Shown in pieces: positions 15,762-19,936 of a stretch of 34,992 bases of DNA. The position numbers and the translations under genes are program-made. The DNA comes from a virus (lineage: Duplodnaviria; Heunggongvirae; Uroviricota; Caudoviricetes). The stretch lies in the IMG/VR virus record IMGVR_UViG_2663763256_000001, one strand, 5' to 3'. The notes under the pieces were generated by a model. It was given only the letters and a program-made list of their open reading frames with translations. It was not told where the DNA came from and searched no databases. How positions within the stretch are numbered: the first letter of the stretch is position 1; each line of letters opens with the position of its first letter.

Positions 15762-16789
<1,028 letters not shown>

Positions 16790-16916
16790 GGATATTTATC
16801 AGGATTTATCAGTTTCTAATCTCTAGATATGTTAAGCACTCAGCCCGTCAGTGGTGGATACTGGCGTGTGTAATAAAGGGGGGATGGCTGATTACCTCTG
16901 ATAAGGGAATGTAACT

Positions 16917-17213
16917 ATGAACGGTATAGATCCATTCAAACCAATCAGTAAGCAACTTGATGTGGTATTACCACAACTGACAAAACACAACGACCTTCTG
17001 GATAAAGTGTTGCCTTTTTATATTGCTGTTACCGCAAAATTATCAGGTAAAACTCGAGAAGAGGTTCTCAAATATAACATGCTGGCTTTAGAAACAATTT
17101 TTGGCTCAGAAAAAGCGGGAAAATCACCCAAAGAGCTGGCAGAATCTCAATTTGCTTATATGACAAATATAAGAGTATCCGAAATCTTTGATAAGCTACC
17201 AGACATTGAATAA
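16917..17213 (+). CDS. hypothetical protein encoded antisense to the lysis cassette
   Basis: 98-aa ORF with AGGGA Shine-Dalgarno about 9 nt upstream and its own intrinsic terminator immediately downstream. No recognizable domain. Confidence 0.55.
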   Translation: MNGIDPFKPISKQLDVVLPQLTKHNDLLDKVLPFYIAVTAKLSGKTREEVLKYNMLALETIFGSEKAGKSPKELAESQFAYMTNIRVSEIFDKLPDIE

Positions 17214-17218
17214 TTTCT

Positions 17219-17248
17219 AAGCGGCAGTAATGCCGCTTTATATTTTTT
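17219..17248 (+). terminator. intrinsic terminator of the + strand gene
   Basis: AAGCGGCA-GTAA-TGCCGCTT hairpin followed by TATATTTTTT. Confidence 0.65.
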
Positions 17249-17456
17249 CAGCCAAATCTCTCAAGAACTGTTTGGCATGTTTTACCGCAGTAACTTCATA
17301 ATAATCCAAACCAGCTCCTTCAAGTCGCTCAAGGTTGATGTTCAGATCAAAAATTTCACCGGCAAAACGTTCTTTGTCCTGTAACGTTAAGATTACCGTA
17401 ACTTTATTCTCAAAATTGCGGGTCCCTTTCACAATCAGTTCATATTTTTGAGTCAT
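17238..17456 (-). CDS. hypothetical protein between holin and endolysin
   Basis: 72-aa ORF whose ATG lies 4 nt after the holin stop (TAATTCAATG), with a GGAG-type RBS inside the holin 3' end. No recognizable similarity. Confidence 0.5.
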   Translation of the reverse strand: MTQKYELIVKGTRNFENKVTVILTLQDKERFAGEIFDLNINLERLEGAGLDYYEVTAVKHAKQFLRDLAEKI

Positions 17457-17460
17457 TGAA

Positions 17461-17676
17461 TTACTCTCCCCGTGCAGCCTTACGACGGTCCTCTCTGATT
17501 TTGAAATACAGGTTAGTCAGATATGTCAGCAGCCCAAACAGCAGACTCCCCAGCACGCCTATTGCCGCCCACTGAGACGGGGAAACCCTGTCCAGCAACT
17601 GCAGGAACCAGTAGCCCGTTCCCACCGCTGACGTGGTGTATGACACACCTGTTGTGATTTTTTCCATCTGGTCCAT
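17461..17676 (-). CDS. holin, phage 21 S-type pinholin
   Basis: C-terminal part ([50 protein letters not shown]) matches recalled S21 almost exactly. Dual-start motif MDQM. GGGAGA RBS. The track ORF extends upstream to 17781. Confidence 0.85.
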
Positions 17677-17983
17677 ACCCCGTCTCCCGTTATCCGGAAG
17701 CTGACAACAATAAAAAAGCCACCAGTTAACTACTGATGGCTCTGATAACTCATGCAAGCGTCTCAGACGACCCACTGACACTACCGGTGAGTTTAACGAT
17801 ACCTTCCATTTGACTGGCTCACTTTTTATGATGATGCCGGTGCATTTATCTCCAGCACCAGACTTTCTATCTCAACGCCATACGTTGCATTTTTGGTAAT
17901 ATCCGTCAGCGTCAGTGCATTTAGTCCCACTGCCAGACTGTCTTTTATGGCCTGGAATGCCGGGCCAGTACGATGACGTAGTA

Positions 17984-18172
17984 TCACTCCGGCTCAGTTG
18001 CACCACTGACCACCACATCACCTTCTGCTGCAATCGCCTGCATCAGGGTATAAGGGGTTATGGCCACCGGACTACCAAACGGCTGCCAGCCCTCTTTCAG
18101 TTTATGTGTCAGCTTTTCCGCAAGATCTGACGGCGGCGCCGCCCTGACAACAGCATAGTATTTAAATGCCAT
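17984..18172 (-). CDS. DUF1737-like small protein
   Basis: MAFKYYAVVRAAPPSDLAEKLTHKLKEGWQPFGSPVAI, a small conserved prophage protein usually found between Q and the holin. Confidence 0.6.
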   Translation of the reverse strand: MAFKYYAVVRAAPPSDLAEKLTHKLKEGWQPFGSPVAITPYTLMQAIAAEGDVVVSGATEPE

Positions 18173-18432
18173 GGTTCTTTCCACCATCTGGAAAATAATT
18201 CTTTAAAATACCAGACATGTAACACAGAAAAAACACAAAACCATACCTTAAATAGAAACCTGATCATCAAGCAGATATGCATGGATAAACTACAAGACGA
18301 GATATAAACCACCCTGCATTTAAATAAACAATAAACAACATCAGAAAAATAATTCTGCTCTATGGTTTATATTCAAAAATATCATTTATACTTTTCAGAA
18401 CATCACCAGCAAGGCATAAACAAGGAAACTAA

Positions 18433-18768
18433 ATGAAGTGGATTGTGATTGATACAGTTATCCAGCCATCATGCGGAATATCTTTTTCAGTCATATGGAG
18501 TAAAGTAAAATTAATAATCTGGTATCAATCGGATGCTTTCTTACCTCCTGAAAGTATATTTACACTGACTCACACAGGTATCATGCTCAATAACAAAGTG
18601 CTACCTGTAACCATTTACAACGTAGTACCATTCAATAAAACATTCTGGAATTTAATCAAAAACAGCCAGGAATGCCCTACAAATACAGATAACGTATTGA
18701 ATGAATGCTTTAATAACCGTTGCACTCTGCAAATATGTCCTTATGGACTAAAACAACAAAGTCCATAA
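18433..18768 (+). CDS. hypothetical AT-rich moron protein
   Basis: 111-aa ORF on the opposite strand to the late operon. AAGGAA Shine-Dalgarno 5 nt before the ATG. Cys-containing C-terminal half. No recognizable domain. Confidence 0.5.
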
Positions 18769-19679: not shown

Positions 19680-19756
19680 TGGCGCGCTGTACTGGATTCG
19701 AACCAGTGACCGATTGCTTAGAAGGCAATTGCTCTGTCCGGCTGAGCTAACAACGC
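19680..19756 (-). tRNA. tRNA-Arg (anticodon UCU)
   Basis: The - strand reads GCGTTGT-TA-GCTC..GAGC-A-ATTGC-CTTCTAA-GCAAT-..-ACTGG-TTCGAAT-CCAGT-ACAGCGC-G-CCA. Cloverleaf with 7-bp acceptor stem, GTTCGAATC T-loop and encoded CCA. Confidence 0.85.
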
Positions 19757-19786
19757 TGAATACCGATAATGGACCGCCATCGGGGA

Positions 19787-19799
19787 CCCCCCCCCCCCC
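19787..19799. repeat. 13-nt homopolymeric C tract (G13 on the - strand)
   Basis: GGGGA followed by 13 C, in the spacer between the two tRNA genes. Confidence 0.9.
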
Positions 19800-19860
19800 G
19801 CACCAACAACCCTGTTATCGTGTCGTCTGCTCTTCCTGATAAGCTCATGGCGGTTTGTGA

Positions 19861-19936
19861 TGGTGGCCCTTGCTGGATTTGAACCAGCGACCTGGCGATT
19901 ATGAGTCGCTCGCTCTCACCACTGAGCTAAAGGACC
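19861..19936 (-). tRNA. tRNA with CAU anticodon (Ile2-lysidine type or Met; ileZ-like position)
   Basis: The - strand reads GGTCCTT-TA-GCTCAGTGGTGAGAGC-G-AGCGA-CTCATAA-TCGCC-AGGTC-GCTGG-TTCAAAT-CCAGC-AAGGGCC-A-CCA. Good cloverleaf. Confidence 0.8.

Follow-up and report, generated by a model that had tools for sequence, protein, structure and literature searches.

We analysed the lysis region of a window of 34,992 nucleotides, the window being the whole stretch of DNA considered here. Its minus strand carries the lysis genes of a Qin-type E. coli prophage: an S21-type holin, a 72-aa gene, a SAR-like lysozyme, and Rz/Rz1. A 98-aa gene on the plus strand stands between the 72-aa gene and the lysozyme gene. 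An initial annotation had described a lysis cassette split by these two small genes, and all the features that it described were found in place, including the ribosome-binding site and terminator that it assigned to the 98-aa gene. The features of the locus, in window positions, are as follows.

15762-16259, minus strand: Rz-type spanin gene, rzpQ-like (Pfam DUF2514, E 3.6e-38; RefSeq annotation of the identical locus and of K-12)
About 15812-16066, minus strand: Rz1/rzoQ-like lipoprotein ORF, embedded in the Rz gene (ORF list, annotation)
16256-16789, minus strand: endolysin gene, rrrQ-like T4-type lysozyme with a SAR-like N-terminus (PF00959, E 2e-23)
16794-16833, plus strand: predicted promoter region of the antisense gene (conserved ATTTATCAGGAT block, -35-like TTATCA, -10 TATGTT)
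16839-16916, plus strand: conserved structured 5' leader (covariance model, 75.3 bits, E 2e-16)
16917-17213, plus strand: 98-aa cargo gene (phrog_25324, WP_001013163.1; homologs, PHROG match with E 7e-61, dN/dS)
17219-17249, plus strand: intrinsic terminator of the 98-aa gene (terminator scan; stem 17219-17238 with 8 pairs, 5 of them G-C, and T-tract 17239-17249)
17238-17456, minus strand: 72-aa gene, short form of DUF1327/YdfR (Pfam DUF1327, PF07041, E 1e-26)
17461-17676, minus strand: class II holin gene, S21-type (PF04971, 'phage P21 holin S', E 9e-33, residues 5-67)
17715-17743, minus (late) strand: terminator-like hairpin upstream of the holin gene (terminator scan; 12-pair stem and T-run)

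The Pfam family matched by the holin is the one based on S21 of phage 21. The N-terminus of the holin is a dual-start motif, MDQM (Met1 and Met4), analogous to the MKSM of S21. Sequence family and dual start place it in class II, with the phage 21 S type, and from homology it is predicted to form pinholes and depolarise the membrane without releasing the endolysin. The 72-aa gene starts 4 nt past the holin stop codon and has the Shine-Dalgarno sequence GGAGAG. As for the endolysin, its N-terminus is weakly hydrophobic and Gly/Ala/Ser-rich, and an E-x8-D-x5-T motif is present. With a lysozyme domain and a SAR-like N-terminal segment, it is a putative SAR endolysin, and the Gly/Ala-rich hydrophobic N-terminal segment resembles that of R21 from phage 21. 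Phage 21 is not known to have a gene between S and R. The endolysin gene has no Shine-Dalgarno sequence and, unlike K-12 rrrQ, starts without overlapping the stop codon of the upstream gene. The hairpin upstream of the holin gene presumably corresponds in position to tR' of lambdoid late operons.

Comparison with the Qin prophage of K-12

The gene order in K-12 Qin is essQ-ydfR (103 aa)-rrrQ-rzpQ/rzoQ, and the ydfR stop codon overlaps the rrrQ start. Gene order and families are identical in the window, and rrrQ, rzpQ, and the downstream cspI/gnsB are common to both. They differ in that the 3' end of ydfR is swapped here for the antisense unit, giving the 72-aa form and an uncoupled rrrQ. Alignment with K-12 Qin, a comparison proposed in the initial annotation, showed that about 440 bp (roughly 16800-17240), which K-12 Qin lacks at this site, stand in place of the last ~95 nt of full-length ydfR. 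The 98-aa unit is thus extra DNA relative to the conserved gene order and carries its own terminator, two features by which morons are recognised. GC content is 0.34-0.42 across 16775-17300 versus 0.50-0.57 in rrrQ and the holin gene, and the native part of ydfR is also at about 0.38. Of 5426 complete E. coli genomes, 62 have the 451-bp segment, with 98-100% identity, and phage Evi, a deposited 40-kb phage genome, has the identical arrangement.

The 98-aa protein and its terminator

Homologs of the 98-aa protein fall into 16 clusters with 59-99% identity and 27 invariant residues, and the dN/dS of the gene relative to its Cronobacter ortholog is 0.08. Judged from these sequences, the ORF is a real protein gene rather than a chance ORF, and it belongs to a tiny Enterobacterales family. 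AlphaFold2 predicts a soluble four-helix protein (mean pLDDT 85). No match to the protein was found among the Pfam, NCBIfam, and PADLOC(-DB) profiles, and a profile of the family searched against 1.84 billion representative proteins gave 6 matches, none of them informative. A plant protein with FF-like repeats (E 5.6e-5) was considered as a relative; it has only an LPxYLAV motif in common with the 98-aa protein, and we treated the match as chance. Foldseek of the model against viral models gave no match at E values up to 0.001, and a PDB sequence search gave nothing informative (best E 0.056).

These remote homology and structure searches, which the initial annotation had suggested, bear on its statement that both small genes are uncharacterized. 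The description suits the 98-aa gene, for which neither fold nor sequence provided an informative homolog. It was overstated for the 72-aa gene, which belongs to DUF1327/YdfR, because this named family is the standard occupant of the position in Qin.

The terminator is shared physically with the convergent gene: its last stem base and the T-tract also serve as the end of the 72-aa reading frame, from the codons for EKI to the stop. Hairpin and T-tract are 100% identical in Cronobacter prophages.

The 72-aa gene is a short form of ydfR

The 72-aa protein scored 93.3 bits against PF07041, the Pfam gathering cut-off being 25, and aligned with positions 1-72 of the 93 in the profile. It does not have the full-length DUF1327 architecture, which comprises the core and a C-terminal extension and is 84-118 aa long in most members. 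Its PHROG relatives have residues 1-70 in common and diverge beyond, and lengths in the DUF1327 family run from 72 to 118 aa. The gene itself is a mosaic. Codons 1-47 are like E. coli ydfR, while codons 48-72 are unlike K-12-type ydfR and lie within the segment absent from K-12 Qin; nucleotide identity to K-12 ydfR is 82% in the 5' two-thirds versus 54% in the 3' segment. Nevertheless, the gene has a dN/dS of 0.18, the length of 72 aa is maintained in lineages that are only 31-36% identical, and the structure model gives a complete beta-beta-beta-alpha fold (mean pLDDT 77). The only experimental data for this family come from K-12 YdfR, whose residues 1-72 suffice for the two-hybrid interaction with the catalytic half of RNase E (PMC13232886). 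At the level of sequence, the 72-aa gene is a conserved short isoform under purifying selection, not a pseudogene, and it matches the RNase E-binding part of K-12 YdfR. Searched against the PADLOC-DB profiles of anti-phage defence, the protein gave only one match, of 13 bits, which is at chance level.

A predicted promoter and a structured leader upstream of the 98-aa gene

The region 16794-16916 contains a widely shared promoter and leader, the most notable feature of the locus, which the initial annotation had overlooked. The -35-like TTATCA (16806-16811) and the -10 TATGTT (16828-16833) are separated by a spacer of 16 nt. Across 78 distinct upstream regions, the -10 was found at a fixed distance from the leader, with T-12 in 70, A-11 in 75, and T-7 in 70 of them. 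The promoter in the window matches the consensus at only 8 of 12 positions and for this reason was not called by a consensus scan. We regard the conserved site as a predicted sigma-70-type promoter, its activity being deduced from this conservation. The promoter region is conserved in DNA as strongly as the leader. This conservation of the whole promoter region at the DNA level could reflect in part recent spread or a role as recombination anchor.

The leader contains an invariant UCAGCC (16840-16845), followed by hairpin P2, in which 16846-16853 pair with 16859-16866, and by P3, whose 5' arm (16878-16882) and 3' arm CCUCU (16895-16899) enclose the invariant GAUGGCUGAUUA (16883-16894). The Shine-Dalgarno sequence of the 98-aa gene, AAGGGA (16903-16908), lies in the 3' part of the leader. 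According to the covariance model, this is the sole copy in the window, and the leader is kept in all 11 distinct 98-aa loci. At least 120 stretches of viral contigs match the leader sequence pattern, their lengths clustering at 53-55 nt. Searches with the covariance model yielded 94 matches (80 distinct) and then 62 further ones, the latter coming from loci fetched by a second pattern and from a few earlier window-type loci.

Support for the structure was found by comparison. Compensatory changes occur in 6 of the 8 pairs of P2, which is paired in 96% of cases, and in 3 of the 6 pairs of P3. With an alignment for pair counting that had been fitted to P2 and P3, all whole-structure measures were above the slid-partner controls and 4 of 5 were above all 500 shuffles. 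At one position of P2, U.G is the commonest pair (38 of 80), which fits the sense strand only. Folded as a single sequence, the leader does not exceed shuffled controls in stability (z = -0.42), and the evidence for its structure is therefore purely comparative. A candidate pairing P1, of UCAGCC with GGCUGA, hardly varies and is not backed by compensatory changes; the second search pattern, which left P1 free, yielded none either, only variants that were wobble-compatible or had a terminal mismatch. Since the P1 pairing crosses P3, the leader could be pseudoknotted or bistable.

Several known or simple explanations of the leader were tried. Rfam 15, searched on both strands of 16500-17800 at E values up to 1, gave no leader match. 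Similarity to the put-type RNA of HK022 was tested indirectly: the leader model, run unfiltered on the whole HK022 genome in place of a put model, found only the copy at gp23, and the next best hit had 10 bits. A mini-ORF in the leader (AUG GCU GAU UAC CUC UGA) was discarded because neither frame nor stop codon is conserved among copies. For a sequestration of the Shine-Dalgarno sequence by CCUCU, the predicted pairing is weak (3-5 bp) and differs from copy to copy. A host or phage factor, for example RNase E/RppH, CsrA, or the ribosome, might recognise the leader.

A cassette shared by unrelated cargo genes

The promoter and leader form a cassette that recurs in temperate siphophages of Enterobacterales. 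It precedes 68 unique cargo proteins, which BLAST groups into 20 families; the cassette thus serves at least 20 unrelated cargo families, mostly of 60-100 aa. It nearly always faces against the late operon around it: both long neighbouring ORFs are on the opposite strand in 60 of 92 contexts, and any same-strand neighbour is found in only 6. The insertion sites are M|L, I|J, TMP|M, the position before terL, and lysis cassettes. In other genera, the 98-aa cargo with the same leader is itself found within tail operons (I|J) and ahead of the terminase genes. DUF1327-like genes of 72-76 aa also lie beside the cassette in tail operons and before terminase genes, which argues against a lysis-specific role of the 72-aa gene. 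The proposal of the initial annotation that it could modulate lysis timing is not supported.

The cassette also precedes gp23 of HK022 (80.6 bits), annotated as 'moron gene product' in GenBank NC_002166. This gene ('srb'), located between tail genes I and J, has been described as a moron (Juhala et al. 2000, as summarised in PMC3594210). It resembles the 98-aa gene in being a small addition to a late operon, with a terminator and a promoter (predicted for the 98-aa gene) of its own, in having the same cassette, and in being antisense and convergent with a small late-strand gene. However, its cargo is unrelated (73 aa versus 98 aa here) and it is located in a tail operon instead of a lysis cassette. 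We searched the literature for the motif sequence, HK022 srb/gp23, and a conserved moron leader, and found no description of a shared leader. What is new here is the shared promoter-leader cassette; a moron and a YdfR-family gene in a lysis cassette are in themselves unremarkable.

Two other systems can be compared. The promoter-early stem-loop (PeSL) of T4-like phages is a conserved block that flanks unrelated small ORFs and serves as recombination points (PMC2839356, PMC4122927). With one cassette for 20 interchangeable cargo families, the arrangement found here works like PeSL, and copies of the cassette in tail operons have a terminator hairpin directly upstream of the promoter. It differs in its long transcribed leader, covarying hairpins, invariant loop sequence, and antisense orientation. 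The cassette is not itself a PeSL, being unrelated in sequence and belonging to another phage group, temperate siphophages. In the tha/ith noncontiguous operon of S. aureus phage 80-alpha, a nested antisense gene has its own promoter, and lysogenic and lytic expression are mutually exclusive (PMC11087260). An antisense gene is nested within a phage operon in both systems. In contrast, the proteins are unrelated, and the nested gene of 80-alpha is an inhibitor within the cI operon, while the arrangement here, deduced from sequence, concerns the late operon.

A mobile antisense moron as the probable explanation

We think it likely that a mobile antisense moron recombined into a lysis cassette of the Qin/phage-21 type, that its cargo is a prophage accessory protein, and that the leader regulates the cargo mRNA. 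The gene identities, the replacement relative to K-12, the conservation, the purifying selection, the covariation of the leader, and the antisense orientation are observed; from this arrangement we infer an active promoter, a cargo expressed in the lysogen and shut off by late transcription, and whatever biochemical function is proposed. The inserted segment would bring a sigma-70-type promoter, the ~75-nt structured leader with the Shine-Dalgarno sequence, the 98-aa cargo, and the intrinsic terminator, whose T-tract would end the ydfR frame at 72 aa by providing its last codons and stop. In the lysogen, where the late operon would be silent, the cassette promoter would transcribe the cargo, and the leader hairpins, acting on the sense RNA, would determine how stable the mRNA is and/or how well it is translated. 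Once the prophage is induced, late transcription antiterminated by Q would run head-on through the unit and shut it off, as in 'noncontiguous operons'. A cargo that is on in the lysogen and off after induction would count as an accessory protein of the prophage rather than a lysis protein. The late transcript would provide the 72-aa protein, which is an intact core domain of DUF1327. Independent, moron-like transcription of the plus-strand gene, as proposed in the initial annotation, is favoured in silico by the extra DNA relative to Qin, the conserved -10, the leader, the terminator, and the presence of the same cassette at the annotated moron gp23 of HK022.

Part of the evidence could also be read as a functional pair, in which a prophage-expressed effector (e.g., of exclusion or defence) would be matched by a late-expressed DUF1327-like partner or antidote. 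Four diverged lineages (the window, Cronobacter, L027/L028, and L029/L031) each have a cargo of the 98-100-aa family facing a DUF1327-like gene of 71-72 aa in convergent orientation, and cargo (58-85% identical) and partner (31-66%) have both diverged substantially among them; terminator and partner stop codon overlap physically, and a nested antisense gene has a precedent (PMC11087260). We nevertheless consider such a pair unlikely. The partner in Serratia, Escherichia sp. ESNIH1, Buttiauxella, and Yersinia L011 is an unrelated family of ~94 aa (hhalign probability of 0.1-0.15% against DUF1327, that is, no relationship), and DUF1327-like partners also accompany a different cargo family. Moreover, DUF1327 occurs in the K-12 Qin lysis cassette without the cargo, and when E. 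coli genomes were searched with a 1-kb query, only 57 of 3253 matching records covered at least 80% of it. It is very unlikely that the antisense unit is a lysis regulator, lowering or delaying endolysin relative to holin through its transcript, or through RNA polymerase collision caused by its promoter, while the 72-aa protein tunes timing. The cargo protein is subject to strong purifying selection, so the cargo is more than an antisense RNA; cargo and leader occur together in tail operons (I|J) and before terminase genes of other genera, DUF1327-like genes are also found outside lysis cassettes, and the deposited phage genome Evi has the same arrangement. All this stands against the position of the unit exactly between the holin-ydfR pair and the endolysin gene, the complementarity of its transcript to about 410 nt of the late mRNA, and the loss by insertion of the ydfR-rrrQ translational coupling of K-12. 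With the endolysin gene uncoupled and lacking an obvious Shine-Dalgarno sequence, the insertion may still affect lysis to some extent.

It is most improbable that the 72-aa ORF is a dead remnant of ydfR and that the conserved block upstream of the 98-aa gene is a DNA recombination anchor without RNA function. In several records PGAP marks the ORF as 'incomplete; missing C-terminus', and the Pfam match ends at profile position 72 of 93, but other RefSeq records give the same ORF as an intact CDS. Its dN/dS of 0.18, its constant length between proteins only 31-36% identical, a fold that is predicted to be complete, and the interaction mapped to residues 1-72 of K-12 YdfR (PMC13232886) are not those of a remnant. 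An anchor would agree with DNA conservation of the promoter region equal to that of the leader and with the PeSL cassettes that serve as recombination points in T4-like phages (PMC2839356, PMC4122927); yet a pure DNA anchor does not predict the compensatory changes and strand-specific U.G pairs of the leader. The antisense moron thus remains our preferred reading.

Implications for Enterobacterales phages

For annotation, the 72-aa form of YdfR is to be corrected to a conserved short isoform instead of a pseudogene. The shared cassette provides a handle on the expression and shut-off of morons, which have so far mostly been assumed, and suggests a way of moving genes between sites, by exchange between conserved flanks. 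It is also a sequence tag for small proteins expressed by prophages, among which factors of exclusion, defence, anti-defence, or host modulation may be sought. We tentatively propose, as a possibility short of a probable one, that the ~75-nt leader, with UCAGCC, P2, and P3 presenting the invariant loop sequence, is a new class of cis-regulatory RNA controlling prophage accessory genes. If true, the leader would mark small proteins that Enterobacterales phages express in the lysogen, a large repertoire so far overlooked, and the 98-aa protein and its DUF1327-like neighbour could be a functional pair within it.

The lysis locus and its counterpart in K-12 Qin

We looked at the organization of the lysis region on both strands. 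As the initial annotation had described, the lysis cassette is split by a 72-aa gene on the late strand and a 98-aa gene on the opposite strand, the latter with its own ribosome-binding site and terminator.

Features of the lysis region and its surroundings
Minus strand: Rz gene with embedded Rz1 ORF (DUF2514)
16256-16789, minus strand: lysozyme (endolysin) gene, 177 aa, PF00959, with a hydrophobic, Gly/Ala-rich N-terminus
16806-16811, plus strand: -35-like TTATCA
16828-16833, plus strand: -10 hexamer TATGTT, after a 16-nt spacer
16917-17213, plus strand: 98-aa ORF, with the Shine-Dalgarno sequence AAGGGA in front
17219-17238, plus strand: terminator of the 98-aa ORF (terminator scan), an 8-pair hairpin beginning 5 nt past the ORF, then a T-tract
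17238-17456, minus strand: 72-aa ORF, start codon 4 nt past the holin stop
17461-17676, minus strand: holin gene, 71 aa, N-terminus MDQM, Pfam "phage P21 holin S" (E 9e-33)
17743-17715, minus (late) strand: strong terminator-like hairpin upstream of the holin gene (terminator scan)
17984-18187 (minus strand) and about 17826-17966: remnants of two ORFs, one a DUF1737 gene, between the Q region and the holin gene (RefSeq: incomplete pseudogenes)
18433-18768, plus strand, opposite to Q and the lysis genes: 111-aa ORF, anti-adapter protein IraM (RefSeq, identical prophage)
About 19680-19936, minus strand: tRNA-Arg and tRNA-Ile genes, downstream of the gene for the Q antiterminator (RefSeq, identical prophage)

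On the late strand, the scan found no terminator from the holin to the endolysin gene. The 1-kb region was 100% identical to chromosomal prophages in several E. coli strains, in which RefSeq labels its genes as class II holin, DUF1327 protein, hypothetical protein and rrrQ lysozyme. This prophage is Qin-like and also carries cspI, gnsB, hokD, Q, RusA, two tRNA genes and IraM. In Qin, the cryptic prophage of K-12, the order is essQ, ydfR (103 aa), rrrQ and rzpQ/rzoQ, with the rrrQ start overlapping the ydfR stop. When the two were aligned, about 440 bp of the window (roughly 16800-17240) stood in place of the last ~95 nt of ydfR. The replacing segment was carried, at 98-100% identity, by 62 of 5426 complete E. 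coli genomes, and the 40-kb genome deposited for Escherichia phage Evi has its genes arranged alike (S, 72 aa, antisense 98 aa, R, Rz). From these sequence comparisons, we read the locus as a Qin-type lysis cassette with an antisense moron, an autonomous accessory transcription unit, gained by recombination inside ydfR and immediately ahead of rrrQ.

The overlap in K-12 allows translational coupling of rrrQ to ydfR, and the endolysin gene of the window is without that coupling. It also has no recognisable Shine-Dalgarno sequence (upstream region 16790-16815) and is preceded by about 450 nt of untranslated antisense sequence. With neither coupling nor a Shine-Dalgarno sequence, a side effect of the insertion on lysis is possible. 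The deposited Evi genome has the same endolysin arrangement.

Among the neighbouring genes, the IraM ORF lies in a very AT-rich stretch (GC 0.29-0.33) and is probably another autonomous accessory gene, from which the leader cassette described below is absent. The DUF1737 and second ORF remnants suggest decay or rearrangement around the late promoter.

The 72-aa gene is a short member of the DUF1327 family

Both genes between holin and endolysin had been taken as uncharacterized; the 72-aa gene belongs to a known family, DUF1327 (Pfam E 1e-26, profile positions 1-72 of 93). PGAP treats the identical ORF inconsistently: some genomes carry it as a pseudogene ("missing C-terminus"), others as an intact CDS (NZ_CP147105 versus NZ_CP019271). 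In PHROG, five families have the first ~70 residues in common and then diverge in length, from 105 to 296 profile positions, and members in a large protein database (72, 84, 103-104 and 114-118 aa) likewise diverge past about residue 70. What the family conserves is therefore its N-terminal ~70 residues. In K-12, a two-hybrid screen yielded exactly ydfR codons 1-72, a fragment for which interaction with RNase E was shown, at the enzyme's N-terminal, catalytic half; both Rne1-598 and RNA co-purified with Strep-YdfR, and residues 73-103 form a predicted helix directed away from the domain (Göpel et al. 2026, PMC13232886). Comparison with the Cronobacter ortholog gave a dN/dS of 0.18, and 72-aa proteins of 31-36% identity with equal start and end occupy the same convergent position in other phage lineages. 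The AlphaFold2 model has a complete three-strand sheet and a C-terminal helix (mean pLDDT 77). Given the dN/dS, the length-conserved relatives, the complete fold model and the binding of RNase E by K-12 codons 1-72, we conclude that the 72-aa gene is functional and intact rather than a pseudogene. The suggestion that it modulates lysis timing found no support. A 99-aa variant from short assembly contigs (P0018) has ...EKI and the stop replaced by ...EKYKAALL... and runs 28 codons further, crossing the terminator and continuing antisense to the 98-aa gene; either natural mutation or a sequencing error could account for it.

The 98-aa gene belongs to a small family found at several sites

Homologs of the 98-aa protein formed 16 clusters (59-99% identity) in E. 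coli, Cronobacter, Serratia and another Escherichia species, and Buttiauxella and Yersinia genomes added further loci. The ORF is a real gene: the family alignment has 27 invariant residues and the dN/dS against Cronobacter was 0.08. It corresponds to phrog_25324, a PHROG family without assigned function. The family is tiny, a profile search of 1.84 billion representative proteins returning just six matches. The AlphaFold2 model shows four helices (mean pLDDT 85) without a long hydrophobic segment; fold and sequence searches gave no informative match, and PADLOC gave none.

In Cronobacter prophages, the 98-aa gene is convergent with a 71-72-aa DUF1327 gene between the lysis and terminase genes, and the terminator of this pair is identical to that of the window. 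The homologs of Serratia, Escherichia sp. ESNIH1, Buttiauxella and Yersinia sit antisense within the tail operon, adjoining a J-like gene, and their convergent partner on the late strand is an unrelated gene of ~94 aa. Lysis cassettes are therefore not the only setting of the 98-aa gene.

A conserved putative promoter and a leader precede the 98-aa gene and many unrelated genes

When regions upstream of the 98-aa homologs were aligned, a conserved block with apparent covariation was detected. From 5' to 3', this leader consists of UCAGCC, hairpin P2, a variable linker, a Shine-Dalgarno-like GGAGG, the invariant GAUGGCUGAUUA, CCUCU, the real Shine-Dalgarno sequence and AUG. A pattern built from its two invariant parts was run on viral contigs, and at least 120 stretches fitted, with lengths clustering at 53-55 nt as in the window; among the matches listed, most downstream ORFs had no relation to the 98-aa family. 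A covariance model derived from the 11 distinct 98-aa loci then found 94 copies (80 distinct) in the fetched loci, and 62 more in loci from a second, independent pattern and a few earlier window-type loci. The window holds exactly one copy (75 bits), as does HK022 (80.6 bits). The leader had no match in Rfam 15, and the motif was not printed in any paper of the literature searched.

In an alignment that had been fitted to P2 and P3, 96% of P2 cells were paired, with compensatory changes in six of eight pairs, and 83% of P3 cells, with such changes in three of six. All whole-structure measures were above slid-partner controls. Four of the five were also above every one of the 500 shuffles; the remaining measure, pairs changed on both sides, was reached in 10 of them. 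The commonest pair at one P2 position was U.G (38/80), which would be a C.A mismatch on the other strand, so that selection acts on the sense RNA. Taken alone, the window leader was no more stable than shuffled sequence (z = -0.42). A candidate long-range pairing P1, between UCAGCC and GGCUGA, would either compete with P3 or form a pseudoknot across it; P1 hardly varies and had no compensatory support, even in a data set collected with P1 unconstrained. At 16878-16899, the 3' arm of P3 and its flank (GAUUACCUCU; GAUCACCUCU in some copies) resemble the 16S rRNA 3' end (GAUCACCUCC), the 5' arm is Shine-Dalgarno-like (GGAGG), and GGAUG stands at the hairpin top. These elements could point to the involvement of the ribosome or CsrA.

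Across 78 distinct upstream regions, UCAGCC has a TAnnnT hexamer 6 nt ahead of it (T-12 in 70, A-11 in 75 and T-7 in 70), with a TTGCT block resembling a -35 element and two short inverted repeats further upstream. The putative promoter of the window agrees with the consensus at 8 of 12 positions, and a consensus scan missed it for that reason. Transcription is predicted to start at about 16839-16841, in which case UCAGCC would form the RNA 5' end. The left edge of this leader cassette abuts the rrrQ start codon (16787-16789). Most tail-operon copies (e.g. HK022, at 2925-2950 of its fetched locus L157) have a G+C-rich hairpin after an A-run directly upstream of the promoter, which reads as a late-strand intrinsic terminator just ahead of gene J or L; late transcription would presumably need to pass it by Q antitermination. 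The window copy is without this A-run and hairpin.

Cargo, orientation and insertion sites

The genes behind the leader cassette (cargo) encode at least 68 unique proteins in at least 20 BLAST families, mostly of 63-100 aa and without a Pfam match; DUF1883, a DUF6602/NucC-like nuclease, an aspartyl-protease-like protein and a zinc-ribbon/Lar-like protein depart from this pattern. HK022 gp23 ("srb"), a member of the largest family, is recorded in GenBank as a moron gene product and located antisense between tail genes I and J, convergent with gp22. Long opposite-strand ORFs flanked the unit on both sides in 60 of 92 distinct contexts, and any same-strand neighbour was seen in only six. Sites were M|L, I|J, TMP|M, before terL and within lysis cassettes. 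The leader cassette was detected in 127 of 5426 complete E. coli genomes and also in HK022, mEp043, mEp213, HK633, ES18, SPN3UB, Oslo and FSL SP-016.

The convergent late-strand partner is most often a gp22-like 58-aa coiled-coil protein, combining freely with many cargo families. Its ORF (beginning MTLEERIEALEKDVSALKKQ; partner cluster 0, in loci L038, L044, L062 and many others) overlaps the 3' ends of many different cargo genes and may supply the exchangeable unit with its second conserved flank. Partners of DUF1327 type occur with the 98-aa family in four lineages and with one other cargo family.

That the 98-aa gene is a moron, as first proposed, gains comparative evidence, from its own conserved putative promoter element and leader, its terminator and the cassette that it shares with HK022 gp23. 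The almost universal antisense placement suggests a switch-like unit: the cargo would be expressed as long as the late operon stays silent, and after induction late transcription would overrun it. A nested antisense gene of S. aureus phage 80-alpha was shown by experiment to switch in this way (PMC11087260). Exchangeable cargo with conserved flanks is also a feature of the PeSL cassettes in T4-like phages (PMC2839356, PMC4122927), which are unrelated to the cassette of the window. In itself, a moron in a known lysis cassette beside a gene of known family is ordinary. What is noteworthy is that the promoter and leader cassette is widely shared and apparently undescribed, and also that its cargo is recurrently paired with a short DUF1327 gene.
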